Of a stretch of DNA of 41,846 nt, positions 3,957-35,163 are shown piece by piece. The DNA lies in NCBI GenBank assembly GCA_043823295.1, contig JBDRAY010000099.1, positions 1-41,846 on the forward strand. Reading direction: 5' to 3'. Source of the stretch: Methanobacteriota archaeon. GTDB taxonomy: Archaea; Altiarchaeota; Altiarchaeia; IMC4; SCGC-AAA252-I15. A model generated the notes under the pieces. It was not told the DNA's origin. It did not search any database and was given only the letters and a program-made list of their open reading frames with translations. Each line of letters begins with the position of its first letter. The first letter of the stretch is position 1. The translations under genes were made by a program, and so were the position numbers.

Positions 3957-4547
3957 ATGGGTGATGATTTTATCCCTCCGCCTGAGGCCGTGGAGGTTGT
4001 CTCCGAGAAAGTCAGGAAAAAAAGGATTCTACCCATATTATTGGTAGTGGTTGTTGTCTTGCTCGTTGCTTTCATATTCTTCCTTCGAAGTAGCGTGGAG
4101 CCAATATCTAATGTCACCGTGTTTTCAACGTCAAGTCTCGGCGAAAAAATGTTTGCGAGCTCTCCTCTAATAGTCCCTCCCGGATTCACATTAACTGACG
4201 TGAATCACAGGAGTGCCCCCTTTAGGATGGGTAAAAATTTTTTACCTGTTGATGCGATAGAGCTTACTTACGCGAAAGACGGTGAGAAAATTATTGTTTT
4301 CATTGCGAAGGGTACGGTGGATGGTTGGAAGAGGATTATCGGAGGTAAGGGTTTCTGGCTGGAGGAGAGTTTCGGGGATAATGTTTATTCAGCCGACTAC
4401 AAATACTTTGATGAAACAATCAACTTTATCTACTGGTGGCATAACGACTCGATTATTGGGGTTAACGCCTCGGTCAGGACGGTAAACGTGATTGATTTGA
4501 CCGAGAAACTTGTTTTACACCACCCTCCAACAGAATCTCTCGCCTAG
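3957..4547 (+). CDS. Hypothetical single-pass (N-terminal anchor) membrane protein
   Basis: I prefer the ATG at 3957 (MGDDFIPPPEAVE...) to the TTG at 3906. One TM helix (ILPILLVVVVVLLVAFIFFL) is followed by a roughly 140-aa beta-rich ectodomain. No family was recognised with confidence. Confidence 0.5.
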   Translation: MGDDFIPPPEAVEVVSEKVRKKRILPILLVVVVVLLVAFIFFLRSSVEPISNVTVFSTSSLGEKMFASSPLIVPPGFTLTDVNHRSAPFRMGKNFLPVDAIELTYAKDGEKIIVFIAKGTVDGWKRIIGGKGFWLEESFGDNVYSADYKYFDETINFIYWWHNDSIIGVNASVRTVNVIDLTEKLVLHHPPTESLA

Positions 4548-4900
4548 GTTATGGTGCATATCCCACTAGTAATCTGACAGTTTAACGGGGTGGATGACCC
4601 AGTCCAGTATTGGGCTATTGCCATGCAATAGAGGCCGCACACGAGGTTTGCGGAAACCGCAGCAACAACAAGTCCAACAATAATCCATATTAATCCTTTT
4701 TTCGCCTCCGCCCGATCGTTAGGCGATTCCGCAGTAATGTACTTCAAACCCTGAATCGAAATCAATAGGACTGCCAAAGCCGCTGCAACAGTCTTGAGTG
4801 CGACGATTAAATCACTCATTTCAGTCAAATAATCTTGGCTGCTCACCAGATTGGCTGCAATCAGGAGAACAAAAACCACGACAATGATCCTTCCCTTCAT
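4544..4900 (-). CDS. VirB2/TrbC-like pilin candidate (short, secreted, two-helix hairpin)
   Basis: Signal peptide (MKGRIIVVVFVLLIAANLVSS) followed by helix-basic loop-helix: AAALAVLLISIQGLKYITAESPNDRAEAKKGLIWIIVGLVVAAVSANLVCGLYC. It is a close paralog of the 104-aa ORF at 17889-18203. It is the last gene of the operon that contains VirB4. Confidence 0.6.
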   Translation of the reverse strand: MKGRIIVVVFVLLIAANLVSSQDYLTEMSDLIVALKTVAAALAVLLISIQGLKYITAESPNDRAEAKKGLIWIIVGLVVAAVSANLVCGLYCMAIAQYWTGSSTPLNCQITSGICTIT

Positions 4901-4901
4901 T

Positions 4902-6032
4902 TTAAATCAATGCTCTGCAATCTCCAATACTTATTCCGAACGCTTCATTTAAAGCGAAGCAATAAATACCCTCAACGAGTTCTGCTGCAAGATATGCAAT
5001 GAAAACGCCGATTATTATATAGATTATACCCTTTTTTATGTCTGCCCTCTCTTGAGGATTGTCTGATGTCACGTATCTTAGCGCGTGTACGGCAATCAAT
5101 AGGACTGCGAGTCCTGCGACAACCTGGAGGAATGCTTCGTTTACTTCCCGTAGTGAATGCCCTAACGAAAATACTTCAATTGAGGGCTTTGGCCAAGGTC
5201 CTGGTGTGGGGCTTAAAGCTGCGGGAGAACTTACAGAACTTACTACAGTACTTATCGTCATTGTAGGAAGTAGAGATGCTATTGGGCTGGGCACGGGTGA
5301 ACCAGATATTGTTCCTATTGAACTCGGTATCGTAGGCACGGGGCTTGATGATGTAGCTGGAATGCTTTGGGGGGGAGTTGGTGTTTCAGGAGTTATGTGA
5401 AGACCCGTCATCGGGGGGACGGGTGTTGCCGCAGGGGAGAAGACCGGGCTTGATACTGTGGCAACTGAATGGCTGGTGGGAGGAAGAAACGTGGGGCTTT
5501 GCGGGGGAGGAAGAGTAGGGCTTTCAGGCGGTACTATTGTTGGACTCATTGGGGGTATAACTGTCGGGCTATCTGGCGGTACTATCGTGGGACTTTCTGG
5601 GGGAACAATCGTAGGGCTTGGAGGCACGACCGTCGGACTTGGCTGGGGGGTTGGTGTTCCACTTGCGTCAACATCGAATGTGCCAATATTCTGGTTTACT
5701 CCGGAATTCCAGGTGGAAGTTCCTGCGGTACGGAGACTACCTTGCGCAAAAACCTTAAAGACGACAGTATCCCCTCCAATCCCGCCTTCACTTCCCGGAG
5801 TAGCGGGGTCGTCTCCATTCACCGACATAATCCCGAAAATTCCTGGAGTAGTAACAACAAAGTCTGGGGGATAGTGCACTCCATTAATCCACGCTTCAAC
5901 AACAGTCCCAACCGGCGCGGGACTACCATCAATCAAAAGCGAACCGTAATAGCCGGCAGGGTTCGGAGGCTCTGCGGAAACACAGATTGAAACGGATAAA
6001 AAAAAGAGTAGGAAAGTGTTCAGCCACCTCAT
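4902..6032 (-). CDS. Secreted protein: N-terminal beta-rich module, Pro/Thr/Ser stalk and C-terminal VirB2-like hairpin
   Basis: Signal peptide (LLFFLSVSICVSA). A roughly 100-aa module is shared with the N-terminus of the 3918-aa protein. SPTIVPPx repeats and a long P/S/T-rich tract follow. The C-terminus VAGLAVLLIAVHALRYVTSDNPQERADIKKGIIYIIIGVFIAYLAAELVEGIYC aligns with the short pilins. Confidence 0.6.
   Translation of the reverse strand: MRWLNTFLLFFLSVSICVSAEPPNPAGYYGSLLIDGSPAPVGTVVEAWINGVHYPPDFVVTTPGIFGIMSVNGDDPATPGSEGGIGGDTVVFKVFAQGSLRTAGTSTWNSGVNQNIGTFDVDASGTPTPQPSPTVVPPSPTIVPPESPTIVPPDSPTVIPPMSPTIVPPESPTLPPPQSPTFLPPTSHSVATVSSPVFSPAATPVPPMTGLHITPETPTPPQSIPATSSSPVPTIPSSIGTISGSPVPSPIASLLPTMTISTVVSSVSSPAALSPTPGPWPKPSIEVFSLGHSLREVNEAFLQVVAGLAVLLIAVHALRYVTSDNPQERADIKKGIIYIIIGVFIAYLAAELVEGIYCFALNEAFGISIGDCRALI
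5480..5654 (-). repeat. About 7 tandem 24-nt (8-aa) repeats encoding SPT(I/V)(V/I)PPx
   Basis: Peptide: PSPTVVPPSPTIVPPESPTIVPPDSPTVIPPMSPTIVPPESPTLPPPQSPTFLPP. The plus strand shows reiterated GGnACnATnGTnGGnCTnTCnGG units. The antisense ORFs here (GGTIVGLSGG...) are a mirror artefact of the repeat. Confidence 0.85.
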
Positions 6033-6068
6033 AGTATCTCACTTAACATATTTACTTCAAAGGTTATT

Positions 6069-9000
6069 TTAATCCTTCCTGCTTGTTTTGTGAAAAATTA
6101 AGATGATTACCACTAAAAGTAGTACTAGTCCCCCAATCATAAATGCTCTTGAAAAAGACCCTATTCCCCCACCGTAAAACATTCCAACAGGGGCTCTTTG
6201 AGGGGCTGGCGCTCCAGACACCATTTCACTGAGTATTTCTGTTTCATTCAGTGCGACGTCCCATATCTTGACTTCGTCGATTACTCCTTCGAAGTAGTAG
6301 CCGTTTGAGAGGGCTCCGATCAATTGAGTGTGAGCGGCCGCAGTGTTTGCAACTATTCTCTCGCTCAGTCCCTCGAGTGTTCCGTCTACGTAAATTTTCA
6401 TGTTTCCTAATCCTCCGTATTCGTCGATGAAGAAGGCATTACTATTGTCTATGTCACCGCTTTCTCCAATGTCGAGGAAGAAGTTGTGGTAAGTCGTAGA
6501 CGGTGTTAAACCTCGCTCGCTCTCATACGATTCCGGGATTATAACGTCCTCGGAGTTCAAACTTAAGGTTCTTGCAGGCGCCGGGTGTGGTATGCCTTCA
6601 AGGTCTTCGATGTATGTTAACATCTGCTTCCTCATCCCCGTGAAGTAGCTCCAGTTGTCGCTTCGCCCGGAAAGGTCTGAGAGGATTTCCGCGCTCATGT
6701 TCACTGCGCTCGAGTATCTCGGAGTAAACGACTTATCCACACTCGCGTAAATCCCGTTCAAGTAGGCTTGAGCCTGGTTTGCGGTGGCTCCCGGATTCTC
6801 AGAAATGGCTTTCTCAAGGGTTGCGATTATTCTTGAATCTTCAATTCCCTCTCGCATCGACTCGTAGATGACTGAGTCTAGAACATCCCCACTCCATGAT
6901 GGAACAACAAGCTGGTATCCAGCCTGCGACCTATTACCCTTCAAAGTTCCAACACGCCCGTAGTATGGATGCTCTAAATCGTCGTAAGGGTGTAAACCCC
7001 ACACGTTGTAGGCGTACACGTAAACTCCAGTTCCATTAAGCGCTGAAGCATATACTCCATTTAGGAACCTGTTGTAGAGGATCTCAGGCATCGTCGCAAA
7101 GTATGTCGTATAGTATGACATTGAATCGCCTGAACGTGCAGTCTTCTCAACCTCTGTCTCATTTAACCTGCCGAGAGCGTACACCCTTATATCCAGCCAC
7201 GGGTCCATGGGTGCAAGGTTTCCTCCAGGATCGTCAGTGAAGGAGTGCTCCCACCCGCTTGCTGTTGCGGCACTCCAGCTTAGTGTGCGGTAGTAGTCGT
7301 CGATGAAGTAGACTATGACGTCTTCACTTCGCGTGCTCTGTTTATCCAGTGTGACTGTCACAGTGTTTGAACCAGGATTCAAGAAACTTCCAATACTTAC
7401 ATTGAAAATCTCTGCAGAGTAATTAAGGTCGCTTACAGTCCATCGCTCGATGTTATTTACTTTAATAGACGCTCGTACGTTTGGAGTCGCGCCGTATACT
7501 GTAAAGAATATGCTGTTTGCATTTGGGTCTGATCCGTCAGCTGATGTGGACAAAACAACCTGCCCTGTTGAGGAGGTGGGATTAGTCAGGAAGTGTCCTG
7601 CAAGCGGCTGCTCGCAGTTGGGGTAGTAAGTAACCCACGTTTCAAGTCCTGCCTCCTGAGCTAGCTTGTTCATAAAAGTAGTCCAACCCCGCTCTCCAGG
7701 ATCTACTCCCGGTTCGTCGCTGAAGCTTACTACCGGAGTGACTCCGAAGCCTGCGAAAAAGTTAGCGTATTGCTGAAGTATTGCAGGATATTCTCGCTTC
7801 AGATCTTCCGGATTGAATGTGAAGGCATTGTCTCTTACGTGTAGCATTACCTTGTCCGGCAGGATCCCCAAGTCGGCAAGTTTCTCAATCTCCTGCTGGT
7901 TGGGTGAGTAATCGATCGAGTAGCTGGCGCTTATCACAGGTTTAAAATATATCAGCGGGTTAATATCGTGTCTTTCCATGTTTGCTGCCGCAAGATCCCT
8001 TGGATTAGAAAAGTAAACTCCGGGAGTGTACGGGGAGTTGTATATATACGGGGTTGCGTCTGGCTGCTCAAGAGCAATGTCGTGGACGGTGAATTCAAGG
8101 TCGACTTGCTGGAAGTCGACTCCAGGACCAGAAATCGTGACTGTACCTGTGTATACACCCGGGTTCGCATCCCCTGGAACGTCTACTGTAAGCCAGACCT
8201 GCTGGCTTGATCCAGCCTTGACATCCATCTGATTCCCATCCTCCAAGTACCATGGATTTACGCCAAAAGCGCTTCCACTACCCGACTTCCATCTCTTATC
8301 TATTGCGACGACTTTCTGGATAGTTATGTTATCATCTGGGATTGTGTCTGAACCTTTTACTAGGTCGCTTACGCTAATTTGCACGTTACTTAAATCTTCG
8401 AAGGCGTATATCGAAAATGTCACAGGCTCCGAGTAACCTGCAACCTCAAATGCTTTGATTGTGTTGGTAATCTCGCTCGCACCAGGTATCGTATTTGGGT
8501 AAACCTTTTCCAAATAGTCTCTTGAATAAATTACGTAATTGTTTGGGTAGTCACCCGGATTTATCGTATTCGACTCTACATAATCCCACCTGTACAATGT
8601 CCTGTTCGACCTGTCAATCTCCCTGCTTGTATGAAGGTCATCGAAGCTTACGAAAGAAAGCCTGACGTAGTCTATGGGAAGCGGCTCTATGCCACTTAAC
8701 TGTTGTGGATAGAAAATCTTGAATGTGAAGTATCCGTCAATGCTTCGAAGTAGCTGGAAGGGATTGCTTTCAAGGTATATACGCAAAATCCTCCAGGTGT
8801 CGTCTCCCATACCCCCTAGTCCTCCGATTTCATGGTAGCTTATTTCTCCAAAGTCGAGTTTAGAATATACTGTGGGCTTGCAATAAGAGTTCATGTCATC
8901 GTATTGCCCGCAGTTGGTCTCATCGACAACATCCTTGTATCTAATCTCAAGGATGGCGTGAGAGTATGGGACTCCATTGCCCGAGAGGTTGAGACTGCTG

Positions 9001-12000
9001 GAATCCAACTTGAAGTGCATGCTTGTTTTCGGATAAAGTAGGCGGTACGTCGTAGACCCTTCACTCCGTGCCGCTTCCACACCATCTTCGAGGACTGCAG
9101 TCAAGTAATGCCAGACTCCGTCATTTACTGGAGTGATTCCTTGCGCATAGCTTACGTGGCTGCCGTTTCCAATTCCGAACTGTGCATCACCATTGGCCAA
9201 CCGTATCACGTATTCCTGATTTACCCAAGCCCCACTCCAAAGCCCGCGCTTGAGCACTCCCTGAGTGCCCGTACTCGTAGTCTTAACCCAAGCAGCTAAA
9301 GTGATTTCATCTCCAAGTCCTAAAGCAGGATTTGGATTAATTACAATGTTGTCGTCGACACCGTCGAACTCGTAACCCTGTCCGTACTTACCCGCAACCA
9401 ACTGCGGCGGAGTGTTCCCGTCGCCGTTACCGTGATTCCAATCAGTCAAAGTCCCATGGTAACCTCCCACAACATCATTCGCATTGCCTGAAAACGGGTA
9501 CTCCGCAACCAAACCAACAACACAAACACCACCCTCGTCAACCTGACCATCACAATCATTGTCCAAACCATCACAGGTTTCCACGCCGCCGTTTGTTGGA
9601 GTGCAAGTGGTTCCCATACAGTCCTCCGGAATTTCCCCGAAGATTGAAGTGATTGTTTCCGTCACGTTTATGATTTTATTACTCGGGTAGCCTGCCACAG
9701 TCATGGCTTCTACGATGCGTTCGTCCATAGGCCACGGCCACAACCCCTGCCCGGTCCGAACACCGTCTACGTATCGGCGGCAAAGGTTTGCGCCACGTGT
9801 CGTATTGAAGACGTTTTCGTTAGCGCCATAGGCGTCGGCGACGGTCGCAGCCTCAATATTGTTGTCGGTCGTCCAGTAACCGGGATCCTTATTGTGAAAT
9901 TGTTCTCCAATTACCGTGCTATTAGCGTAGATTAATCCTCCAGGTGGGTAAGTGCCGGCTTCCTTCCAGCGTGCTGATCCGTCTTGGACTTCCCCTCCAC
10001 TTATTGTCGGCCAAATTGGCTCTGTGGATCCAGTAGTACCGTTTACAATTAGCTTATAGTAGTGTCCGTTCCAAGTGGTTGGTATCCTATAGATATTACG
10101 TGATCCAGTATTGTAAAGAGTATTTGGTTTCCACTGATTGTGTGCTCCTAGAATCACGTTGTAATCCACTCCAGGGTGGTTTGTATACACTACATTATCA
10201 CGAATATCTGTTGTTGTAGATCCAGTCAAATAGAAAAGGGTTCTATCGTTGAAAGCAGGGATGTCCTGGTCTGCCGTCACATACGAAAGCGATCCTAAAA
10301 CTTTTATGTCTGCTGCCTGGTCCTGTTCGTCTAGTCTGTCTCGGGATATTAACCCGTAATATTGTGTTCCACTTGGATTCTGTTCTTTTAGGGAATCCCA
10401 AGTTGCAACGCAGTTTTCGCAAAGACCACCATAACTGTTATAGTACATTGAAAACGTCATTTTCGGGTCGCTTCGGCTCGTCCCCTCCCACCGACCGAAG
10501 CATCGGCGGAACGTAGTATTGTCGCCGTGCTGGGAGTTCGAATACGTCTTCCGCGCGATACCGAATCCGGCACAATCTTCAAAGGTGTTGTTATTCGATG
10601 CAGTGTGTGCACCGAATATGTTCGTATTACCGTCAAACGCATCCCAGCCGACAACCCTTCTAATTATGTTGTCGTGTGAACGCGCAATGTTGACCACGGT
10701 TGCGGAAGAATTAAAAGCATTTAATCCTTCTATAACGAAGAAGTTGTTTTGATCCAATAAAACCGGTTCATTTACTCCTGCACCATTTACCCATGCTTTC
10801 CCGTCACGGTAAGCCTTAACCGTTATTGGGGATCCGCTTGACCCGCTTAATCCGTCAGGGGGATTAATCATGGAATCAGAGCCAGTGTAAATTCCATCTA
10901 AAAGACACAGTGTGTGTCCCGGCTGGGCGATACTCCAAAAGTCTGACACCTTAAACGGGCTTGCAAGTGTCCCGGTTCCCCCGCCGGTCGGCGAGGCATA
11001 ATAGTCGCAGTCGGTAGCGGGAGAAGCGCAACCTTCATCGACAACCTCATCACAGTCATTGTCAACTCCATCACAGAATTCAGGAGAAGGAGTGCACACA
11101 TCATAGTGTTCGCAACCGTCTGTGAGGTCTACATTCGCATCTTCGTAGTTGTGGAAGCATCCGTCGAACTGGCATTCCCCGGCGACGCAGCTGGTGAATG
11201 CTTTCGGTATGTAGCAGATGTTTCCGCAGGCTCCGCAGTTGAAGGGGTCGGTCTGAAGGTCGTAGCCTTCGTCTACTGTGGAGGCGGCGGTTTGCGTGCT
11301 GCATCCCATATCGTAGTAGCTTGCGTCGCAGTCGTTGTCGATGCCGTCGCAGACTTCAAGGTAGTCGGGATTGCAAGGGCTTGGCTGGTCGGTGATGGCG
11401 TTCCATGAATAGTTCGCGGCGAGCTGAAGGGTACCTATGGGATTGCTTGTGTAGAAGTTGTTTCGGAACATTCCGGAACTGTTCTTATCGTTCATGGTGT
11501 ACGACCACCACTTCACTGGGTTTTCGTAGTTGGCTGGACCTCCCACATAGTCGAATCCGTAGGTTGAAAGTAGGTTCGGCGAATCCGCGATTTTCCTGGG
11601 ATCGCAGCTTGTCTCCTCGTGCGCCCAGCTTACCAGAGCAAAGTTTTCCCGCTCGAGGAGGTCGAGTCCATACCACGTGTCTCCTATCTGTCCTCCATAG
11701 CGGACTTGGGTGTATTCGTCATACCAGTGGTAGGGGTTGACCATGTCGTCGTACATGAGCACCTTGATGTTTGGGTTGAAGGAGTGGATGATGTCGCTTA
11801 CGTTGTTTATGAATTGTCCAAAGAGCTGGTAGTTTTCTAGTCCAAGCCTTTTCGAGCGGCTGTCGCGGTTGAAACCCCAAATTTCGTCCATGGTTATGAG
11901 GATGTAGTCGGGCGTGAGCTGCTGCATCGTTGGGCGGACGATGTTTTCCTTGTAGACTTCGAGGACTTCTGGGTCTGCGAAGCTCATCTTTTCCGTGCGC

Positions 12001-17825: not shown

Positions 17826-17888
17826 GTTACCTACCCTGCCACTTGCAGACGTGTTAACTTATGGGCAGGTTTAATGTAAATAAGGGTT

Positions 17889-20451: not shown

Positions 20452-20454
20452 TTC

Positions 20455-22743: not shown

Positions 22744-22744
22744 T

Positions 22745-24363: not shown

Positions 24364-24367
24364 AAAA

Positions 24368-25501: not shown

Positions 25502-25507
25502 TTTAGA

Positions 25508-27328: not shown

Positions 27329-27839
27329 CTTGGGATTTTCGAATCCTTGAAGCTCTTTGAGCTTCCATAATTCCTTTTTTTGCGAGTTCGTCCAATCTTT
27401 CATTTGGGATGTTGTATTTCCCTATTTTTTCGGAGAATATTTTATCGTCTTCGCGAATCTTCTTTTCGGTTTCGTTTGCCTTCCTCCCTTCCGCCCAGAG
27501 GGTTTTCCCGATTTTGAACTCGCATTTACTGCACTTTAAATTTTCTCCGTCTTCTTTCAGATACGACAAATCTTTTTCCTTGAATATCTGCTCGTCGCTG
27601 TTGCATGTGGGGCAAAGGTTTTTTTCGAAAGTTACGTTCCACATGGGAGTTCTCGTAAGCCTTTGACCCCTTAAGGTGTAGTCCTTATACTTGTGCCTTA
27701 CAATAGTCTCATAGATTTTCTGCCGTGCGTCATCTTCATTCAAGTTGTGTCTTGCAAGCCAGTTTTCTGCAAAACCCTTAATTACTTCCTGCTCTCTCCT
27801 GCTTAACGGGAGTTTTGCCGTGTATTTTTTATCTTCCAT
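27315..27839 (-). CDS. Zinc-ribbon protein (CxxC...CxxC), function unknown
   Basis: 174 aa with a CPTCNSDEQ ... LKCSKCEF four-Cys ribbon. Both termini are charged and helical. It lies 3 nt downstream of the 1654-aa gene. Confidence 0.55.
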   Translation of the reverse strand: MEDKKYTAKLPLSRREQEVIKGFAENWLARHNLNEDDARQKIYETIVRHKYKDYTLRGQRLTRTPMWNVTFEKNLCPTCNSDEQIFKEKDLSYLKEDGENLKCSKCEFKIGKTLWAEGRKANETEKKIREDDKIFSEKIGKYNIPNERLDELAKKGIMEAQRASRIRKSQDEQD

Positions 27840-27842
27840 TTT

Positions 27843-30800
27843 TTACGTCACCCTACTTCCGGGCGCTACTGGAGTCGAAACCATGTTTTGCAATCCAGTG
27901 AATAGTTCGAATACTCTGCGAGTCTCCCCTCCCATTGACGGGGCTGAAAAGTCGTGTCCCGCCGCACGGAAGGCTTCGTCAATCGTCATCTTATCTGGGG
28001 CTGATGCAGTTCCAGTCAACGCTTCAACACTTGCCCTTACTGCCGCTGAATCGGTAGTCCCCAATGCGGCGTCTAATCCTTGGGCACGCCTTTCAAGCTC
28101 CTCTGCAATTGCTGCCGCCTGGGCCATGTTTGCCGTATCGTTATCAGAAATACTTCCCTTCGGATTTATTGCTCTTTCGGCATAGATGTTTGTGGCCTCT
28201 TGCAAAGCCTTCGTCTGGGTTCTGATGTAGGCTAACTCTTCCTCTTGCGCGGCAGGTAAATCTGCGGGTGAAGCTCTCGCCTGGTTTTGAGAGTGTCGTC
28301 CAAGCTCGACGGCCGAGGCTAAAGTCTCGTCTACTGCCATTCCCGCGTCTGTCGGATTAAATCCCGAGCGTCGTATCTGAGTTCTTCCACGAGCGACGGC
28401 TGCATTACCCCCGGAAATAACCGTTTCGTCGAGTCTTTCCCCAGAGATTATTATTTTTTCATACATGTCTTCAGCAGTCGTCACCTGCTCCCGGGAACCG
28501 GCTCCCGAGGCCGCCCAGCTTACAAGCAGGTGCCCTCCTTCGTGACCTAACGCGGGTATGACACTTTCTCCTGTGGGGGTATCTCCATTGAAAATATCAG
28601 CCTGAAGCATTTTGCTTCCTGCATTGAGTACCAAAGTTCCAGTCGTCTTTTCTATTGCATACGGATTTGCGTCTCTCCAGTCGTAGTCGAATTTAATCGC
28701 CTTAGGCCGCATGGCTTCGGGAAGGCTTGCCGCGTGGGCTGCGTAGCGCATGAGAAAGTCGTTTACCCTGGATCCTGGCAATTCCTTCTGCACGAGCGCG
28801 TCAGCTTCGTCAGAGTCTATGTAGACGCCCAACTTCTTCATGGCTTCAAGCTGCTTCCCCCTCTCCGTTAGGAACGCGTCGTCCACAGTCTTTGTAATCC
28901 TTGACTGGGTTGTCGGATCCCACACTTCAACAGTATCCCCCATCGTGTAGTTTTCAGTCAAGACTCCCGCCCCTCTAAGGTGTACTGTATCACTAGTTCC
29001 TCCAAAGTAGGTTGAATTATTTTCAACGAATTTTCGGGCGTGAGCTGGACTTTCAATATGCACGACGCCTGCCGTAGTGGGAGTGTACTGTCCCTCATAA
29101 TTATACTTTCCAGCCCCGCTTGCAGCCTTCTCATCATAGTGGCCGGCAAGATCTGACAAGGCTATGAAACCTCTACCCTCCCTAATGCGGTCAGCCCGAT
29201 AATCCAAATCCACAGCTTCACTGTGACGACCCGCCTTCCTCCTCTGCTTTGCCCCCTCCCTGAATTCACTAACCGTTTCTCCCACTTGCTTTTTCTCCAC
29301 CCTGAATCCGTAAACCAGGTTGCCGCTCGCATCCCTTTCCTGAACGAGCTCGTCCCTGTCGAAACTGCGCGATTTTTTTACTCCGTCGGTAAAGCTTATC
29401 TGCGCGTTTCTTCCCCCGTGCTTGCCGATCGACTGGTAAAGCGGGTCCTCAGCTGCATGCAGCAACTCCGACTGAAAAGTCCCGTAAGTCGTGTTTCTGT
29501 CAAGTAAGGTGCCACTACTCTCAAACGATTCCGGAAGTGTTGCGACGTTTCTGACCATGACCTTCCCCTCGCTGTCGGTAGCCCAATTCTCTTGCTTTTC
29601 CACAATCGCATGTCTCTTATCTCTCTTAACGTCTGCAGCTGCAATGTCTGCAGGGGTTCCACTTGCCCTAAGGGCCTCTTCCTCCCCCCTAAGCTTGTTC
29701 ACCATCTGCGTATTCGTTACCTTCTCCTCTTTATCATAATAGCCCTGCAAGATTGGCTCTATTCTCACTCTCTCAACCTGACCTCCTTCGTAAGCCATCC
29801 TCTGCCTCAAGTAAGAGTAGTCTTCCTGGTTTAAGAGCATGGCCCCGCTTTCAGTCCTCTCCAAGTCCATGGTCAAGCTCATGGCACCCGTCTGAGGGTC
29901 GAGGATGCGCTCCATCGGGGTGGCTGCTGCCATCTCTTCGGGAGTAAGCTGCACGTATCCAGCAAGCCCTCTGGCGGTGAAAGCCCTTGAGGCGTAATCT
30001 CCCATCTCGGCAAAAGCAACAGCATTGTCAAGAGGTTTCGCTCTATACAACTTCCCCTCATCATCATCCTTCTTCGACATACTCGCCTGAGCCGACTCCC
30101 TCTCTTTCATTGGTACTGTTTCAGGGTTCCTATGACCTATCCTGTGGGCTCTGAAATGCGTTAGAAGGCTTTCCCTCTTTTCCCCCCATTCATTAGCGGC
30201 CTCACTACTTAAGGTTCCGGCACGCTTTCTCCTGGAAACCTCTTTCTTGAAATTATCATCATTCAAATCAACTATCTCCTCGGAAAAGATTTTACTCCAA
30301 GCCTCCTTCTCAGACACTTGGTCAAAAGTCCTTGCCCCAAGTGAAGCATCTGCTATCTCCTGCCGCTTATCCCCCACCCTCGACTCTAAATCCCTGACAA
30401 GCTCGGTTCCAGGATGCGCTTCATAACCCTTACCTTCGCTTAAAGACTGGGAATCCGCCAAAACCAACTTGAAGATGTCCTGCCGCTCATCCTTACTAGA
30501 ATAATTGTTTTCCAAGCTAGTCAAGCACGCTTGGACGTAGTTGGGATCCCTCTCATTTAAAACATCAGTCCCCTCCCGCAAAGCATCCAACGTCCCACTA
30601 ATAGCACGCACGTGTCTGTCTCGCTTGGCTCTATAATGCGCTTTCACATCATTCCTTCTCGCATCATTAGCAGTGGTTCCATCAAATTTCGTAAGTTTAA
30701 TCAACCTCGCGTCAATCTCAGCAAGCCTTCCGCCAGTCGCAGTTAGCCGCTCTTTTTCAAGGTCTTCGATTTCAGCAAGCGTTCTACTTGCACTCGAAGC

Positions 30801-32807
30801 CTTCTTCGCTATTCCACCCCTCCCCATTATTCCCCAAAGCTTCCTCCCTGCTCTACTCCTCCCATGGACTTGCCTGAAGCCCATACCCATCATCCGATTT
30901 CCAACCTGATAACCCACCCAACGAGCGCCAGGAGGCAGAAGCTGAGCGCTCGTACCAACAATAAAAGCTCCTATCTGGCGAATAGGCTCAAAAGGACTAA
31001 TAGGCATTAAAGCGAAGCCAACACCCTTAACACCCCTTATGAATGCGCCTGCAATCGCCATCTTAGAAGCGCCGGGAGTTTTTGCAAGCTCCATAGCGTA
31101 ATGCAAAAGAGACATACCTCTAAGCCCTTGCGAAGTGCCCCTGTCCACAGCCCTCATAACCGCATCACTGTCGACGAGCATGGGGGCTATGTGTTCACTC
31201 CACCATCGAGTTGGGTAGCTTAAGTCTTGGCCATGTAGCGTTTTCATACCTGTGGGACCTCCCTTACCATAACGCCATTCATCCGGGACGTTACCACCCA
31301 TACCTCCACCACTCCTAAAATCAGGAGCCTCAGGCACGGAAGTTGTGGCTGTCACGTCAGAGCCCTCTACTCCCCCTCCTCCAGTGCCGCCAGCCCCGCC
31401 GCCGGAAGCCTTGTCAGGGTGTTTTGGAACCCTGGTCCCCGTCTTATACCCGTGGTAACTCTCCCTCGCCCCCCGGGCAATATTCCCTCCTGTTCTTGCC
31501 ATACCACTACCATAAGCGCGGCCTGACCCTGTGAAAAATCCACCGACAGCCCCTAAAATACCACCTCGGCCATAACCTCTACTCACACCCCTCCCAATCT
31601 CACCGTAAGGCTTCATAGTCTCCTTGACACCACCCCACATTCTACCCCAAATACCACTCATACCCGGAGTAGTCTGTCCGGCCCTCAAGTAACCCACCTG
31701 AGCGGCGCCTGCAACAATGGAATCAGGTCCGAAGCCCATCCCAATCTGGCCGACGCTTTGAAGCATGGCGCCTGAAAACGTGCCTCCCCGCGCAGCCCCC
31801 ATCGCGGCTGTTATGCCTCCAACCCACTTGAGCATTCCAGTCACCATCAAGCCCGAAACAGCGAAAGCGGTCATCCCCGCCAAAACGACCAAACCGTGAG
31901 CTAGGAAGTGGTCTGGAACTCCCCCACCAGTCAAGGCGATAACTGTTATTGCCAGCACTAAGACCTGGGCGACGGGCATGAAAATCCAAAGTATTGTGGT
32001 CCGAAGAAGGTTAGCTCCTAAAGTTCGGGTGTAGTCGAAGAAAAAAAGGAAGAATGAGAGCGGGAAGAAAATCGCAAGTAATTGGACTACCAAATACCGG
32101 AAGGCTAGAATTGCCAGTCCGATAACGGAGATTATGATCGGCAACCAACCAAGGATGACGGCTTGGGGACCTAGGAAAGCAACTACTACGCCGTTTACAA
32201 CCTTATCCGACCAATCATCCTCAACAATATTCCATATGGTTTTGACCATATCCAATTCAATATCCAACAGCAACTGAAAGAGGGGTGGGGAAATAGAAAC
32301 TAAAAACATGCTCATCAAAACCTTGTTAAACTGTGACTTAGCCAATGCCCGGTCGCTGGGGGATATTGAAACATAGACTATGTAAATCGCGATCAGAAGG
32401 AGGAGTATTCCATAAAATGGGATAAGCAACTTTAATATTGTTTTAGTAAGGTTGGAGACTGCGGGATTACCCTTATCAAAGGGGTAAATCGTGGGATTCA
32501 GCCTTAATGACCACCCAACCAACCATAACAATCCTTCAACGACAGGCTCAAGGAGGAATGTGATGAAGGCGTAAATCTGTTTGACAGCTATGTGTACTAA
32601 TCCGAGGAATCCCTTACCTAAGTCGAGGAGTCCTTTACCAGATGCTATGTACCACGTCCAACTCCCAATGTTTGCCAAAGCACTCTTCTCAGTATCCCAA
32701 CCCTGCCCGCAGGTGTTCAAGGCCAAAGAGAAAAATACTGCGGTGATTAATAGGGTCAATAATACCGTATTCCATTTGGAGTTTTGCGAATTATTTACTC
32801 CTTTCAT
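27843..32807 (-). CDS. Extended VirB6-like protein (1654 aa): N-terminal polytopic domain, Gly-rich linker and a roughly 1200-aa soluble region with an HExxH motif
   Basis: The first roughly 345 aa are paralogous to the 631-aa VirB6-like protein. A Gly-rich segment follows (ASGGGAGGTGGGGVEGS). The long soluble part carries ALGHEGGHLLVSW (HEGGH at residues 1422-1426, nt 28530-28544). Confidence 0.6.
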   Translation of the reverse strand: MKGVNNSQNSKWNTVLLTLLITAVFFSLALNTCGQGWDTEKSALANIGSWTWYIASGKGLLDLGKGFLGLVHIAVKQIYAFITFLLEPVVEGLLWLVGWSLRLNPTIYPFDKGNPAVSNLTKTILKLLIPFYGILLLLIAIYIVYVSISPSDRALAKSQFNKVLMSMFLVSISPPLFQLLLDIELDMVKTIWNIVEDDWSDKVVNGVVVAFLGPQAVILGWLPIIISVIGLAILAFRYLVVQLLAIFFPLSFFLFFFDYTRTLGANLLRTTILWIFMPVAQVLVLAITVIALTGGGVPDHFLAHGLVVLAGMTAFAVSGLMVTGMLKWVGGITAAMGAARGGTFSGAMLQSVGQIGMGFGPDSIVAGAAQVGYLRAGQTTPGMSGIWGRMWGGVKETMKPYGEIGRGVSRGYGRGGILGAVGGFFTGSGRAYGSGMARTGGNIARGARESYHGYKTGTRVPKHPDKASGGGAGGTGGGGVEGSDVTATTSVPEAPDFRSGGGMGGNVPDEWRYGKGGPTGMKTLHGQDLSYPTRWWSEHIAPMLVDSDAVMRAVDRGTSQGLRGMSLLHYAMELAKTPGASKMAIAGAFIRGVKGVGFALMPISPFEPIRQIGAFIVGTSAQLLPPGARWVGYQVGNRMMGMGFRQVHGRSRAGRKLWGIMGRGGIAKKASSASRTLAEIEDLEKERLTATGGRLAEIDARLIKLTKFDGTTANDARRNDVKAHYRAKRDRHVRAISGTLDALREGTDVLNERDPNYVQACLTSLENNYSSKDERQDIFKLVLADSQSLSEGKGYEAHPGTELVRDLESRVGDKRQEIADASLGARTFDQVSEKEAWSKIFSEEIVDLNDDNFKKEVSRRKRAGTLSSEAANEWGEKRESLLTHFRAHRIGHRNPETVPMKERESAQASMSKKDDDEGKLYRAKPLDNAVAFAEMGDYASRAFTARGLAGYVQLTPEEMAAATPMERILDPQTGAMSLTMDLERTESGAMLLNQEDYSYLRQRMAYEGGQVERVRIEPILQGYYDKEEKVTNTQMVNKLRGEEEALRASGTPADIAAADVKRDKRHAIVEKQENWATDSEGKVMVRNVATLPESFESSGTLLDRNTTYGTFQSELLHAAEDPLYQSIGKHGGRNAQISFTDGVKKSRSFDRDELVQERDASGNLVYGFRVEKKQVGETVSEFREGAKQRRKAGRHSEAVDLDYRADRIREGRGFIALSDLAGHYDEKAASGAGKYNYEGQYTPTTAGVVHIESPAHARKFVENNSTYFGGTSDTVHLRGAGVLTENYTMGDTVEVWDPTTQSRITKTVDDAFLTERGKQLEAMKKLGVYIDSDEADALVQKELPGSRVNDFLMRYAAHAASLPEAMRPKAIKFDYDWRDANPYAIEKTTGTLVLNAGSKMLQADIFNGDTPTGESVIPALGHEGGHLLVSWAASGAGSREQVTTAEDMYEKIIISGERLDETVISGGNAAVARGRTQIRRSGFNPTDAGMAVDETLASAVELGRHSQNQARASPADLPAAQEEELAYIRTQTKALQEATNIYAERAINPKGSISDNDTANMAQAAAIAEELERRAQGLDAALGTTDSAAVRASVEALTGTASAPDKMTIDEAFRAAGHDFSAPSMGGETRRVFELFTGLQNMVSTPVAPGSRVT

Positions 32808-32848
32808 TCACATAGTTTATTAGTTTAATCCCTCTAAATAATTAAAAA

Positions 32849-34369
32849 GTGAAGCTGAAGGCGGCGGTTTTTATTTCAGGGGTGGCGGTTATGATAATCG
32901 AGATACTCGGCAGCAGGTTGATAGCACCCTATTTTGGAAACTCGATTTTCGTATGGACCTCAATAATTGGGGTAGTCCTCGCATCACTCAGCCTTGGATA
33001 CTACTTTGGGGGACGGCTTGCAGACAAGGAACCTTCAATCGAAAAGCTTTCACAAATCCTATTATACGCTGGACTAGCAGTCTGCTTTATACCCGCAATC
33101 TCCACACCAATCCTCCTATTATCAACACTTTTTGGATTGAAACTCGGCTCAATAACAGCCTCACTAATACTACTTTCAATCCCAAGCATTCTCCTGGGTG
33201 TAGTATCCCCCTACGCAGTCAAACTCGAGACTAAAAAACTCGGGGTTTTAGGTAAAACCGCCGGAAACCTATACGCAATATCAACATTCGGAAGCATCAT
33301 AGGGACTTTCCTCACAGGATTCGTATTGATTCCCTTAATTGGTGTGAAATCAATTCTATATCTTGTAGCGCTCCTACTTTTCTCAGCCTCAATAATCCTG
33401 TCAATAAAGAACAAAATCAAAGTTTTCGCTTCAATCGGAATCATGGTACTGATAATAGTATACATTGCCCCAAAAAGCGAGGCATTAGACTCGGCTGGAC
33501 TCGTTTACAGTCACGACACCCCCTACTATCACATCACGGTGAGGGATGGGGAAAAGTGGGGCCGCAATCTGAGAAACCTGCACCTTGATATCGGACTCCA
33601 AGGAGGAATGTTCTTAGACACCAATGAAAGCATCTACCCCTACTCCTATTTCTTCCAGGTTCCTTTTACATTGAGAGAAGACATACGGGACGTCCTATCT
33701 TTAGGTACTGGAGCGGGTATTACTCAATCAAGCCTTATTAAACACTATCCTGATGTGCGTATCGATACTGTGGACATAGACTCTGAGGTAGCTAGGGTTG
33801 CAAGCGAATACTTCGGTTTCGTTGAAAGTGAAAAATTACGGTTCTACGTCGATGACGCGCGATTTTTTTTAACGAACTCCCAGAAAAAATACGATCTGAT
33901 AATCCTGGACGTGTTCACATCCGACCCCTCAACACCCCCTCACTTAACAACGACTGAGATGCTTGGCGGGATAAAAGACCACTTGAATGAGGAAGGCATT
34001 TTCGCCGCTAACGTAATAGCATCCCTTGATGGTCAGTACTCGTATTTTTTCAAAAATTTCGTAAAGACTTGTAGAGGGCAATTCTCATGCGTTCACATTC
34101 TTCCGATGAGTGGGGAATTGGAGGAGCTCCAAAACATTATTATAATCGGGATGGATTCCAGCGAATGCATCGGGAAAGAAGATTTGCGCATTCTTTTAAG
34201 GATGCTTCCCGAAAACCCAATAGTCGACTGGAAGACATATTCAGCAAACCTGATGTTTGATGACCTAAACCTTACTGGCGCATCCGTTTTGACTGACGAC
34301 TATGCGCCGGTCGAATACCTTCAGATGAAGGCTTCTGAGAAAGTAGTCCAAAGATACTACCAGTATTAA
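32849..34369 (+). CDS. Membrane-fused spermidine-synthase-like (class I SAM-fold aminopropyltransferase-like) protein
   Basis: GTG start. The N-terminal roughly 200 aa have about 7 TM helices (FISGVAVMIIEILGSRLIAPYFGNSIFVWTSIIGVVLASLSLGYYFGG). The C-terminal domain contains VLSLGTGAGITQS..VRIDTVDIDSEVARVASEYFGF..LRFYVDDARFFL..KYDLIILDVF, the typical spermidine-synthase-like fold. Confidence 0.7.
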   Translation: MKLKAAVFISGVAVMIIEILGSRLIAPYFGNSIFVWTSIIGVVLASLSLGYYFGGRLADKEPSIEKLSQILLYAGLAVCFIPAISTPILLLSTLFGLKLGSITASLILLSIPSILLGVVSPYAVKLETKKLGVLGKTAGNLYAISTFGSIIGTFLTGFVLIPLIGVKSILYLVALLLFSASIILSIKNKIKVFASIGIMVLIIVYIAPKSEALDSAGLVYSHDTPYYHITVRDGEKWGRNLRNLHLDIGLQGGMFLDTNESIYPYSYFFQVPFTLREDIRDVLSLGTGAGITQSSLIKHYPDVRIDTVDIDSEVARVASEYFGFVESEKLRFYVDDARFFLTNSQKKYDLIILDVFTSDPSTPPHLTTTEMLGGIKDHLNEEGIFAANVIASLDGQYSYFFKNFVKTCRGQFSCVHILPMSGELEELQNIIIIGMDSSECIGKEDLRILLRMLPENPIVDWKTYSANLMFDDLNLTGASVLTDDYAPVEYLQMKASEKVVQRYYQY

Positions 34370-34382
34370 AAAAAAAAATTTT

Positions 34383-34405
34383 CCCTGGGCTGGAAAAGCC
34401 CAGGG
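34383..34405. terminator. Perfect 8-bp hairpin between convergent genes, flanked by A/T runs (candidate bidirectional terminator)
   Basis: CCCTGGGC-TGGAAAA-GCCCAGGG. It is preceded by A11TTTT (34368-34382), which is a T-run on the minus strand. It is followed by CAGTTTGCTTTT on the plus strand. Confidence 0.45.
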
Positions 34406-34415
34406 CAGTTTGCTT

Positions 34416-34742
34416 TTAACCGCACTGTTGGCTGTATATTAATGATACAACTTCTACTGCTATCAATACGATCACTAGTCCGACCACGGCGTGCACAATA
34501 CCTTCTTTGGCTTGCTTTCTCGCTCCAGGGTCGTCTGAGGATCCGATCCACTTGATACCGTTAATAACGATAACCAAGGTCGCAACAGCTCCGGCAATCA
34601 TCTCCAGAAGCCAGCGAATATTGTTCACTATAGAACATATTTGCTGTGCTGTTGTTTCGCTCCATGTTCCCACGGTCGCTTCAGTAGCCACCACGAAGGA
34701 GGCTAACAACAGAATGCCTAATAACGGCAACATTTTTTTCAT
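34416..34742 (-). CDS. VirB2/TrbC-like pilin candidate (divergent third short paralog)
   Basis: Signal peptide (MKKMLPLLGILLLASFVVATEA) then LLEMIAGAVATLVIVINGIKWIGSSDDPGARKQAKEGIVHAVVGLVIVLIAVEVVSLIY. This is the same helix-basic loop-helix layout as the other four modules. Confidence 0.5.
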   Translation of the reverse strand: MKKMLPLLGILLLASFVVATEATVGTWSETTAQQICSIVNNIRWLLEMIAGAVATLVIVINGIKWIGSSDDPGARKQAKEGIVHAVVGLVIVLIAVEVVSLIYSQQCG

Positions 34743-34881
34743 GTTTTAACTCACCTCTTATTTTTAGGGTAAAATATTGTTAAATATTGCTATCAGTCAT
34801 TTAAAAATACAAATTATAATTTTATAACGATTTTTTTCGTATGACTAGGGGCTTCTCCTTGGTTTTCACCCGGATTAATCT

Positions 34882-35163
34882 TCACCCCCCGTAATTACCG
34901 TAGGGGAACCACGGCTTCGAAACGACCCTTGAAACCGTGTCAATTAACTTCTCATGATCCTCAATTTTTCTCGACTCCACGAACTCAATGAACTCCCATT
35001 CCCTCGTTTTTATGAATCTGAAGGCCGCGTTAATAAGGTCACTTTGCCTCATCCTAACCCCTCTTTTAGCGAAGTATATGTTGAGGCTCTTGATTAACGT
35101 GACTGTTTCCAAGTCAACTCGTTGTGTGCTGTATTCTTTTTTATCCTTATTCTTTTTTTCCAT
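34882..35163 (-). CDS. Small DNA-binding protein candidate (ribbon-helix-helix-like)
   Basis: 93 aa. A basic N-terminus is followed by a strand-helix-turn-helix pattern QRVDLETVTLIKSLNIYFAKRGVRMRQSDLINAAFRFI. It lies upstream of, and on the same strand as, the third pilin gene. Confidence 0.4.
   Translation of the reverse strand: MEKKNKDKKEYSTQRVDLETVTLIKSLNIYFAKRGVRMRQSDLINAAFRFIKTREWEFIEFVESRKIEDHEKLIDTVSRVVSKPWFPYGNYGG

Follow-up and report, generated by a model that had tools for sequence, protein, structure and literature searches.

What could a type IV secretion system (T4SS) do in the chromosome of an archaeon if no relaxase or coupling protein lies beside it? The question is raised by a contig of 41,846 bp (GenBank JBDRAY010000099.1) from an Alti-2 Altiarchaeota archaeon. 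The window that we analyzed is this entire contig, and statements about the whole window cover these 41.8 kb of one organism. All of the open reading frames (ORFs) in the window are intact, and the T4SS genes follow each other on the minus strand between 4544 and 35163, a few bases apart or overlapping by a few. An earlier note on this DNA had described two tight minus-strand operons encoding a chromosomal VirB2/VirB3/VirB4/VirB6 apparatus. All of the genes that it described are present, on that strand and with that spacing, and the apparatus is real: pilins, VirB3, VirB4, and VirB6 can each be recognized. Compact, chromosomal, and derived from conjugation, the module to which this locus belongs is strongly conserved and occurs across Altiarchaeota and several DPANN phyla. 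We propose, with confidence that is about evenly balanced, that it is a domesticated and vertically inherited minimal T4SS of the monoderm lineage (the lineage of Gram-positive and Mycoplasma integrative conjugative elements, or ICEs) and that it serves relaxase-independent transfer or uptake of DNA between cells. The core components are listed here (L001, L087, and similar labels are loci of relatives; P0135, P0261, and similar labels are homologous proteins).

20455–22743, minus strand: VirB4-family ATPase, 762 amino acids (aa) (P-loop_TraG, conju_CD1110, PDB 4ag5, Walker motifs)
22745–23686, minus strand: VirB3/PrgI-like membrane hairpin plus the N-terminal part of VirB4, 313 aa (PrgI, Mycoplasma ICE VirB4 model)
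34416–34742, minus strand: VirB2-type pilin, 108 aa, with signal peptide and two-helix hairpin (T4SS_pilin 4.1e-13, 49.7 bits; TrbC/VirB2 3.1e-7, 30.9 bits)
17889–18203, minus strand: VirB2-type pilin, 104 aa (T4SS_pilin 1.5e-10, 41.4 bits; 98% identical in L001)
4544–4900, minus strand: VirB2-type pilin, 118 aa (T4SS_pilin 2.6e-11, 43.8 bits; 94% identical in L001)
4902–6032, minus strand: pilin fusion, 376 aa (T4SS_pilin 5.4e-12, 46.0 bits, at residues 294–353)
18196–20451, minus strand: Cys-rich protein with a pilin hairpin, 751 aa (T4SS_pilin 6.4e-7, 29.8 bits; TrbC 4.3e-6; TSP_3 3.8e-4)
25508–27403, minus strand: VirB6-like protein, 631 aa as an ORF (TrbL matches of orthologs; Foldseek matches of its AlphaFold model to TrwI/VirB6)
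27843–32807, minus strand: extended VirB6-like protein, 1654 aa (a paralog of the 631-aa protein and of 270–360-aa proteins in DPANN, alignment A2)

The ATPase has the Walker A and Walker B motifs that had been noticed earlier (GTSGGGKS at residues 258–265 and ILVIDE at 464–469), and it matches Pfam P-loop_TraG (5.7e-26), NCBIfam conju_CD1110 (3.6e-87, 293 bits), and the Mycoplasma ICE VirB4 model (2.5e-70, 237 bits). Further matches are to TraC-F (1.1e-40), VirB4_CagE (TIGR00929, 9.1e-33), and CedB (1.6e-16), and the N-terminal domain has a score for CagE_TrbE_VirB of 4.9e-4 (20.6 bits, cut-off 21). A comparison with PDB sequences favors VirB4 over HerA: VirB4 of Thermoanaerobacter (4ag5) is matched at 3.6e-34 and HerA at 5.8e-4. 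We found 1104 VirB4 homologs, the majority of them from Altiarchaeota. In some of the Altiarchaeota homologs (P0261, which has 1426 aa, and P0115), a large insertion directly follows Walker A; these insertions look like P-loop inteins, and P0115 has a precomputed intein-splicing Pfam match.

Directly upstream of VirB4, where the earlier note had placed a PrgI/VirB3-like protein, the 313-aa protein matches PrgI above the cut-off (3.2e-7, 31.2 bits, cut-off 27). The rest of this protein aligns with positions 72–277 of the Mycoplasma ICE VirB4 model (1.8e-13; TrsD, 4.6e-5), and the 762-aa protein resumes the model at position 277. The two proteins are thus a VirB3-VirB4 that is split into two genes. 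In Woesearchaeota, Pacearchaeota, and Nanoarchaeota, VirB3 and VirB4 are fused, in proteins of about 900–1100 aa.

By homology, this T4SS appears to be of the monoderm conjugative type (CD1110/Mycoplasma-ICE VirB4) and not of the Ced type. The equivalog model for CedB-type ATPases (NF041017) gives 60.1 bits, as compared to a cut-off of 700 and far under the bacterial monoderm VirB4 models. The nearest plasmid VirB4 proteins are from Actinobacteria and Firmicutes, at an identity of only 24–30%. The top family scores and the top plasmid matches are all of the monoderm type, so the class would be MPF_FATA, as judged from profile scores rather than from a tree.

All five of the VirB2-like hairpin modules that had been proposed score above the cut-off for T4SS_pilin (PF18895, 26.6 bits), and one of them also passes the cut-off for TrbC/VirB2 (27.9 bits). 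The pilin at 34416–34742 keeps its place upstream of VirB6/VirB3/VirB4 across Altiarchaeota and DPANN (L005, L006, L036–40, and about 30 DPANN loci). Two of the modules are parts of larger proteins. The 376-aa fusion consists of a signal peptide, a module of about 100 aa, a Pro/Thr/Ser-rich repeat linker of about 170 aa, and the VirB2 hairpin. The 751-aa protein, which has 36 Cys and is confined to close relatives (L001, L009, and L022), consists of a signal peptide, a Cys-rich/TSP3 domain, a VirB2-type hairpin (264–333), and a C-terminal domain of about 420 aa; its hydrophobic segments are at 5–23, 276–294, and 315–333, and its two large domains are predicted to be extracellular. A phmmer search of the 751-aa protein against PDB sequences gave nothing useful, and a profile search with the pilin alignment (A6) against solved pilin and other PDB sequences gave no match. 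The 751-aa protein also has a weak NCBIfam match to the archaeal fusexin Fsx1 (E = 0.0068). Fusexins are reported on archaeal integrated elements; this match covers only the membrane-hairpin region and we judged it to be non-specific. The shorter pilin proteins (4544–4900, 17889–18203, 4902–6032, and 34416–34742) have Cys-containing tails past the second helix (such as LVCGLYC...C..C, CGPPCP, and SQQCG), which may form disulfide cross-links or bind metal between subunits.

The earlier note also proposed two paralogous VirB6/TrbL-like polytopic proteins, and this holds up. Neither paralog in the window itself matches Pfam TrbL; orthologs in Altiarchaeota match TrbL/VirB6 (P0135, 3.1e-6; P0133, 3.9e-4; P0129, 4.1e-3), and P0135, which is 47% identical to the window protein, is the only one of these three to pass the cut-off (27.6 bits versus 25.9). 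In the 631-aa protein, the N-terminal domain is polytopic and the tail is rich in Gly, Ala, and Lys. When its AlphaFold model (pLDDT 73) was compared to 350,542 PDB chains by Foldseek, the seven best matches were all TrwI/VirB6 of plasmid R388 (7o3v, 8rt9, and 8rtd; probability 0.90–1.0, E = 0.03–0.3). Support for a VirB6/TrbL type of protein at 25508–27403 is thus good, although not overwhelming. The start of this ORF overlaps the upstream gene by 89 nt; because the alignment to the ortholog in a relative begins only at residue 26, the real start is probably M26 (ATG at 27328), which would give 606 aa. In the 1654-aa protein, residues 1–340 make up a polytopic domain that includes a pilin-like hairpin (a weak T4SS_pilin match at 117–177, with seven to nine hydrophobic segments in the protein), and a hydrophilic tail of about 1300 residues follows. 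The tail is poorly conserved (about 10% identity among orthologs), and a phmmer search of it against PDB sequences gave nothing useful. It contains HEGGH (HExxH) at residue 1422, which we rejected as a metalloprotease site because no ortholog beyond the nearest relative keeps the motif. More broadly, 16 of 28 members of the VirB6-like family have a T4SS_pilin-like N-terminal hairpin. A profile search with the family alignment (A2) against PDB sequences gave nothing, or spurious matches to coiled coils or ubiquitin. In some Altiarchaeota, five tandem VirB6-like paralogs of 310–420 aa adjoin VirB4 (L035:1167–6460 and L023:6987–12920), which recalls the VirB6 expansions of Rickettsiales.

If this is a transfer system, what would it transfer? 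The earlier note stated that the apparatus lacks any DNA-processing partner, which we now doubt because of the C-terminus of VirB4. Matches to plasmid and NCBIfam VirB4s end near residue 588, and the remaining 176 residues are kept to the very last residue in Altiarchaeota and DPANN. This domain is present in all of the Altiarchaeota and DPANN homologs that we examined and in no plasmid VirB4. We modeled it with AlphaFold from an alignment of 24 sequences and counted the conservation of its residues in 72 full-length homologs (35 from Altiarchaeota and 37 from DPANN).

20458–20985, minus strand: C-terminal domain of VirB4 (residues 587–762), predicted to be a winged-helix-like subdomain followed by a PD-(D/E)xK nuclease-like core (AlphaFold, Foldseek, conservation)
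D687, ahead of strand 2, with Pro or Ala before it: 72 of 72 homologs
E701, in strand 3: 72 of 72 homologs
H660, at the start of the first helix: 70 of 72 homologs
K718, in the helix after strand 3: 69 of 72 homologs

The model (pLDDT 91.3) has a small strand-helix-strand subdomain and then a helix, three strands, a helix, and a strand, which is the order of the alpha-beta-beta-beta-alpha-beta core of the PD-(D/E)xK superfamily. Its Foldseek matches in the PDB are almost exclusively PD-(D/E)xK nucleases, the best being NucS/EndoMS, YaeQ, Can2, Card1, R.BspD6I, EcoO109I, Hjc, and VRR-NUC (probabilities up to 1.0, E-values from 2.5e-3). The four residues above are kept although overall identity drops to 35–40%. 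In place of the canonical Lys of strand 3, 36 of the 37 sequences from DPANN have Glu, and those from Altiarchaeota have E, I, V, or S. This domain is probably a nuclease or a DNA-binding module that is built into the sole ATPase of the system. Because VirB4, the motor of the machine, ends in a nuclease-like domain, it probably moves DNA.

The domain seldom occurs apart from VirB4: when 1.84 billion representatives were searched exhaustively, only 134 relatives were found, and most of these are VirB4 C-termini, many of them from truncated genes. A few are stand-alone proteins (P0289, P0293, P0318, and P0307) of 290–365 aa with a membrane anchor at the N-terminus, a coiled coil, or both. A profile search with the alignment of the domain (A5) against PDB sequences gave nothing, or spurious coiled-coil or ubiquitin matches. 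We also considered and rejected the idea that VirB4 and its nuclease-like domain are a defense system. In PADLOC, VirB4 scores 83 bits for mad8 and 46 bits for HerA, which is well below its 293 bits for the conjugative VirB4; also, its neighbors are pilins, VirB6, and VirB3, and no defense gene context was found at the locus.

Is the locus resident or mobile? No ORF of the contig has a Pfam or NCBIfam match for a relaxase, VirD4, an integrase, or a replication protein, and there is no VirB11 in the apparatus. The window also has no att-like or long flanking direct repeats, no tRNA genes or Rfam families that would mark a site of integration, and its composition shows no clear break. The earlier note likewise reported no relaxase, VirD4, integrase, att-like direct repeats, or replication genes in the window. 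As a check of synteny across related archaeal metagenome-assembled genomes (MAGs), we found that the order aRF1 - PheT - (glycosyltransferases) - PMT_2 - pilin - VirB3 - VirB4 recurs in distant Altiarchaeota (L005, L006, L036, and L038–40), and one locus with the conserved order from aRF1 to VirB4 sits on a contig of 1.56 Mb. Across those loci, identity is 55–59% for VirB4, 64–70% for aRF1, and 50–52% for PheT. Because the neighborhood is kept in distant Altiarchaeota and VirB4 diverges about as much as aRF1 and PheT do, the locus appears to be vertically inherited and resident, under strong selection, and not an ordinary ICE, as had been suspected from its housekeeping neighbors. We also rejected an origin from a virus or plasmid: there are no close relatives in IMG/VR, and plasmid VirB4s are at most 30% identical.

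To describe the distribution of the module, we scanned one genome per GTDB species and found 375 stretches with a relative; the details are from the best 80 of these. About half of those 80 are from Altiarchaeota, and the rest (35–42% identity) are from Iainarchaeota, Woesearchaeota, Pacearchaeota, and Nanoarchaeota. Four genes are constant: the pilin (about 110 aa), the VirB6-like protein (about 300 aa), the VirB3-like protein, and VirB4, with about 40% identity in DPANN. An all-against-all clustering of the neighbors at 81 loci found no family besides this core that is common to Altiarchaeota and DPANN. The copy number of the pilins and their fusions vary quickly between relatives. A second group of Altiarchaeota has VirB4 followed by a conserved trio, namely a Band_7/SPFH protein, a 95-aa protein, and a membrane protein with Mrr_cat and PAP2 (L006:12364–15678 and 13–17 further Altiarchaeota loci, such as L024:5468–7279).

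In DPANN, 8 of about 41 loci have a tyrosine recombinase, DNA methylases, restriction enzymes, and a PDDEXK_1/DUF2800 nuclease within 5–8 kb, and two MAGs have two copies of the module each. Because of these nearby genes and the two-copy MAGs, some DPANN may still carry the module on integrated elements or have it in variable islands. Examples are L055:2366–3595 and seven others, L075:6390–7040, L051:15023–16213, and L047:12272–14935, and the genes at these loci include Zn-ribbon tyrosine recombinases, N6 and N4 DNA methylases, and type I, Eco57I, and GmrSD restriction genes.

How might such a system work? We propose that VirB4/VirB3, on a VirB6 platform, would pull pilins from the membrane to build a pilus or a short conduit to a neighboring cell. 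As there is no VirD4, we propose that VirB4, as the sole ATPase, would both assemble the filament and drive nucleic acid through the VirB6 channel. The fused nuclease domain would nick or resect DNA at the cytoplasmic mouth of the channel and so stand in for the relaxase, much as a HerA-type translocase works with the NurA nuclease. The outcome would be exchange or uptake of DNA between cells without a relaxase, as with Ced/Ted, with a separate evolutionary origin. (Ced/Ted are a precedent in that they import DNA with VirB2, VirB4, and VirB6 parts only and without a relaxase; PMC9905601.)

Several observations weigh against this proposal. First, the (D/E)xK Lys is missing from strand 3 (which has E-x-E/S/I/V, with the near-invariant K718 in the next helix), Pfam profiles give no significant nuclease family for the C-terminal domain (there are isolated weak matches to CoiA_nuc, HSDR_N_2, AHJR-like, and Cas4), and its Foldseek E-values are only about 3e-3. 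For these reasons, the domain could be a non-catalytic module that binds DNA or protein. Second, a nuclease activity and a DNA substrate of VirB4 are predictions, and we know of no VirB4 protein that translocates DNA in the classical systems. Third, pili of this kind have not, to our knowledge, been reported for Altiarchaeota. Fourth, the search for VirD4 and a relaxase was confined to the 41.8-kb contig, with the rest of the genome outside its scope. Finally, a similar relaxase-less, pilin-bearing T4SS in Patescibacteria is thought to export proteins or to serve another role (PMC10633639).

A broader version of our proposal is that Altiarchaeota and most DPANN share an ancient four-gene conduit for nucleic acids, in which a VirB4 with its own nuclease replaces the coupling ATPase and the relaxase. 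We put this forward tentatively, as a possibility that is more doubtful than not. If true, it would be a previously unrecognized mechanism for relaxase-independent transfer or uptake of DNA (or RNA). Ultra-small archaea could exchange genes, or obtain nucleic acids from hosts, mainly in this way, and the conduit could be a shared derived character that links Altiarchaeota to DPANN.

Among the alternatives, the one that survives best is the one that the earlier note put forward: the apparatus delivers proteins (effectors or toxins) upon contact, or mediates interaction with a host, and giant hydrolases or adhesins breach or hold the envelope of the partner. This would match proposals for Saccharibacteria and for the SPEARE proteins of nanohaloarchaea. 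It is suggested by the absence of a relaxase and a coupling protein from the contig and by a giant gene inside the operon.

6069–17825, minus strand: membrane-anchored surface protein, 3918 aa (Peptidase_S8 1.2e-56, I9, Laminin_G_3, GH20b, GH123_N, MopE)
5165–17860: strain-specific insertion of 12.7 kb in the pilin gene array (blastn of the window against L001)

The giant protein has an S8 protease with an I9 propeptide, propeller repeats, and lectin-type domains, with membrane anchors at both ends (segments 23–41 and 3894–3912). It had been described as a protease/glycosidase/lectin protein. The S8 catalytic triad is intact (D378, H417, and S633) and Laminin_G_3 is present; in contrast, glycosidase activity is not established because only the non-catalytic GH20b and GH123_N domains were matched. 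It shares the module of about 100 aa with the pilin fusion (45% identity, 2e-27, between the 376-aa fusion and residues 60–157 of the giant protein, or 17355–17648 of the window).

However, the giant gene is missing from relatives with the same gene order and 90–94% identical DNA (L001–L003 and L087). The collinear blocks 3852–5164 and 17861–20295 are only 230 bp apart in L001, and the sequence that takes the place of those 230 bp comprises both the giant gene and, in the 376-aa fusion, the N-terminal module and the linker; the relative has, as the counterpart of this fusion, a pilin of 142 aa that lacks the module. Neither copy of the module is present in the close relative, so the two novelties that share it arrived together or by duplication. 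A search with the N-terminal 1400 aa of the giant protein found no full-length homolog; the best matches, which are large S8 surface proteins from DPANN archaea and from candidate phyla radiation (CPR) bacteria, cover the I9+S8 region only (at most about 39% of those 1400 residues). In other lineages, large surface proteins adjoin the T4SS module only sporadically. Because the 12.7-kb insertion is absent from such close relatives, the giant protein is accessory cargo at the strain level and not a conserved part of the machine, although its gene may be co-transcribed with the module. So, the idea that the T4SS is wired to a giant surface protein, attractive as it is, needs to be corrected: the giant hydrolase/adhesin is not integral to the machine. 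In our proposal, the 3918-aa protein and the module-bearing pilin would be recent, strain-specific additions that at most modify surface contact.

Protein delivery has other support. The analogous system of Patescibacteria is essential for epibiotic growth and was suggested to export proteins (PMC10633639); VirB4-like ATPases are found in or beside the giant proteins of nanohaloarchaea (PMC10266531); and a few DPANN loci have LamG, FG-GAP, or RHS proteins, or a toxin-like LamG-ribonuclease protein, nearby. (The last of these is in a MAG of Woesearchaeota: L083:17755–21870, minus strand, about 5 kb from VirB4, encodes a protein of 1371 aa that combines three Laminin_G_3 domains with a barnase-type ribonuclease domain at its C-terminus and resembles polymorphic toxins.) On the other hand, the conserved neighbors are the four core genes and not large surface proteins, no effector-like genes are conserved with the module, and the universally conserved nuclease-like domain of VirB4 would be left unexplained. 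Also, the episymbiotic, DPANN-like lifestyle that the earlier note imagined does not fit an organism of the Alti-2 clade of Altiarchaeales, which is predicted to be free-living (PMC4975002); the core module is nonetheless widespread in DPANN. Overall, we consider protein delivery unlikely.

A second alternative is that VirB4, VirB3, and VirB6 just assemble VirB2-type filaments for adhesion or aggregation, some of them with Cys-rich or lectin-like decoration, and that no substrate is transferred. Five pilin paralogs, two of them fused to large extracellular domains, would suit this role, and rapid variation in the number and the fusions of pilins is expected for adhesins that are exposed at the surface; nor is there a second ATPase to transfer a substrate. 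But this does not explain the invariant nuclease-like residues on a cytoplasmic ATPase or the fact that VirB6 channel proteins have everywhere been kept and have expanded, and the known VirB2 pili are parts of transfer systems. We think it quite improbable that the filament is for adhesion only.

Third, the channel could scavenge nucleic acids: foreign DNA or RNA would be taken up and degraded to nucleotides by the nuclease of VirB4, which would be most relevant to DPANN that lack nucleotide synthesis. The module is widespread in genome-reduced DPANN, the nuclease-like domain lies at the cytoplasmic face, and a parasite from Patescibacteria was reported to feed on the RNA of its host with tubular structures that are perhaps T4SS pili (bioRxiv 10.64898/2026.06.21.733656). 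This seems very unlikely because Altiarchaeota are autotrophs with a fuller metabolism (PMC4975002), yet the system is as strongly conserved in them as in DPANN; uptake has no direct evidence, and a single PD-(D/E)xK domain is poorly suited to bulk degradation.

Finally, the VirB4 of a conjugative MPF_FATA-like lineage, the recombinase, methylase, and restriction genes near 8 of about 41 DPANN loci, the two MAGs with two copies, and the lack of recognizable relaxases in archaeal conjugative plasmids as well (PMC9905601) might point to an integrated conjugative element, or a decaying remnant of one, whose relaxase, coupling protein, and integrase are elsewhere or too divergent, but we find this highly implausible given the fixed chromosomal place beside aRF1/PheT across deep divergence, the evolutionary rate like that of housekeeping genes, the lack of an integrase, repeat, or replication gene on the contig, the intact ORFs, and the absence of a clear compositional anomaly.

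In overall design, the closest described system to the domesticated T4SS that we propose is the chromosomal T4SS of Patescibacteria/CPR (such as Saccharibacteria SEML1_0006–0019; PMC10633639, PMC12102498). That system is also chromosomal and near-universal in its lineage; its VirB4 is akin to the monoderm MPF_FATA class, VirB2/T4SS_pilin (PF18895) occurs in several paralogs despite the monoderm-type core, VirB6- and VirB3-like parts are present, and most of its clusters have no relaxase or coupling protein. In contrast, the system described here is archaeal (Altiarchaeota and DPANN) and has its own VirB4 group, a split VirB3-VirB4, and VirB6 tails of 300 to 1300 residues.

Ced and Ted (CedA/A1/A2/CedB and TedA/B/C; PMC9905601) are also chromosomal and minimal, with a VirB2-type pilin, a VirB6-type channel, and a VirB4-type ATPase and without a relaxase or VirD4. 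CedA and VirB6 have a pilin-like N-terminus (Beltran et al., PMC9905601), as do the VirB6-like proteins here that match T4SS_pilin. The earlier description of the apparatus as Ced/Ted-like is apt for function only. As to ancestry, the ATPase is not orthologous to CedB (60 bits versus 293 bits for CD1110); also, a VirB3 component is present here, and Ted loci come with HerA/Rad50 as separate genes, whereas VirB4 here itself contains the nuclease-like domain.

The monoderm conjugative systems (MPF_FATA: Tn916/CD1110-type, pCF10 PrgH–L, and Mycoplasma ICE Mbov_0395–0397) provide the best VirB4 matches, the VirB3-VirB4 arrangement, the PrgI match, and a weak match to a Mycoplasma pilin-like protein, and they likewise have no outer-membrane core complex. 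Unlike them, the locus here is off a mobile element, has true VirB2-type pilin arrays, and has an extra C-terminal domain on VirB4, a nuclease-like domain that also sets it apart from plasmid VirB4s. A relaxase, a VirD4-type coupling protein, a VirB8-like protein, and a cell-wall hydrolase were not detected here. The vir homolog (Rvh) T4SS of Rickettsiales is likewise resident in the chromosome, with tandem VirB6 paralogs that have large hydrophilic extensions; in contrast, it is a diderm system with VirB7–B11 and VirD4 that is used on eukaryotic hosts, and there is no sequence relationship beyond the family level.

The SPEARE loci of nanohaloarchaea (PMC10266531) combine a giant surface protein and a VirB4-family ATPase at a DPANN-type locus and were proposed to be a secretion device. 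There, the ATPase domain lies inside or directly after a giant Ig-repeat protein that is conserved; here, the giant protein is an S8 protease that is specific to the strain and is encoded separately, among pilin genes. HerA-NurA end resection, with its hexameric ATPase of the FtsK/HerA/VirB4 superfamily and its nuclease, is a conceptual model for a translocase that feeds a nuclease. It differs in that NurA is RNase H-like and the complex is soluble, with no membrane channel or pilins, and the coupling within VirB4 is inferred.

How much of this is new? Some database records already label individual proteins as VirB4 or TraC. In the literature that we searched, no paper describes the module in Altiarchaeota or in DPANN generally; we found the studies of Patescibacteria (including PMC12102498), the link between nanohaloarchaeal SPEARE and VirB4 (PMC10266531), and passing mentions. 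What is new is that the four-gene core occurs broadly and is conserved like housekeeping genes, that VirB4 is fused to a nuclease-like domain and VirB3-VirB4 is split, that the VirB6 paralogs are extended and multiplied, and that pilin hairpins are fused to large external domains. The locus bears on two open questions: how DNA is exchanged in archaea outside of Crenarchaeota and how ultra-small DPANN are supplied with macromolecules by their partners. The nuclease-like fusion gives a concrete hypothesis for how DNA is handled without a relaxase or a coupling protein, with D687 and E701 as testable residues.

The remaining minus-strand genes of the locus are these.

27315–27839, minus strand: Zn-ribbon protein, 174 aa (four Cys in CxxC pairs; weak Zn-ribbon matches)
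24368–25501, minus strand: soluble protein, 377 aa (no Pfam, NCBIfam, or PADLOC match; 96.8% identical in L001)
34882–35163, minus strand: soluble protein upstream of the first pilin, 93 aa (no family match; same position in L087)

The 174-aa protein always lies between the two VirB6 genes, a place that is kept in at least 8 Altiarchaeota loci, and it is a lineage-specific accessory. The slot of the 377-aa protein is filled by an unrelated protein of similar size (cluster 4) in 13 more distant Altiarchaeota loci. The 93-aa protein is kept in close relatives only, and its fold may be ribbon-helix-helix, which is a guess. Profile scans of the 377-, 174-, 197-, and 93-aa proteins found no family match for a VirB8-like protein (PrgL/TcpC) or a VirB1-like hydrolase (PrgK/TcpG), of which divergent versions may exist, and Pfam, NCBIfam, and PADLOC scans of these four and of the 213-, 113-, and 104-aa proteins gave no informative match.

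Two ORFs on the plus strand interrupt the series. The 197-aa antisense ORF between the two operons (23770–24363, no family match) encodes a protein that is 86% identical in the relative, while the surrounding block of DNA is 93.7% identical. Possibly this ORF is not a gene, in which case the 680-bp gap may be a regulatory region instead. The other ORF, at 32849–34369, lies between the first pilin gene and the gene for the long VirB6 and encodes a membrane protein of 506 aa that contains a spermidine-synthase-like domain. As the pilin directly precedes VirB6 in a relative with 66% identity (L004/L016), this gene appears to be a lineage-specific insertion.

The flanks encode subunits B and D of the A-type ATP synthase, a CBS protein, two PMT_2 glycosyltransferases, a short PheT, aRF1, and a TylF-type methyltransferase. 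The aRF1, the A-type ATPase subunits B and D, and the split PheT confirm that the source organism is an archaeon. VirB4 homologs of 55–98% identity are almost all in MAGs of Candidatus Altiarchaeota/Altiarchaeales, and the closest genome to that of the organism is "Euryarchaeota archaeon SCGC AAA252-I15", which was assigned to Alti-2, a clade of predicted free-living autotrophs (Bird et al., PMC4975002). The PheT at 38142–38966 has only 274 aa (B5 and a catalytic-like core), which fits with the split pheT that is a shared derived trait of Altiarchaeales (Bird et al. 2016, PMC4975002).

A few relatives of the module are in unexpected bins. The T4SS genes have equal sizes and coordinates in L064, on a contig labeled as Peregrinibacteria, and in L056, from an uncultured archaeon, and a VirB4 like those of Altiarchaeota is in a "Spirochaetia" bin (L043). 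These are probably errors of binning rather than transfers.

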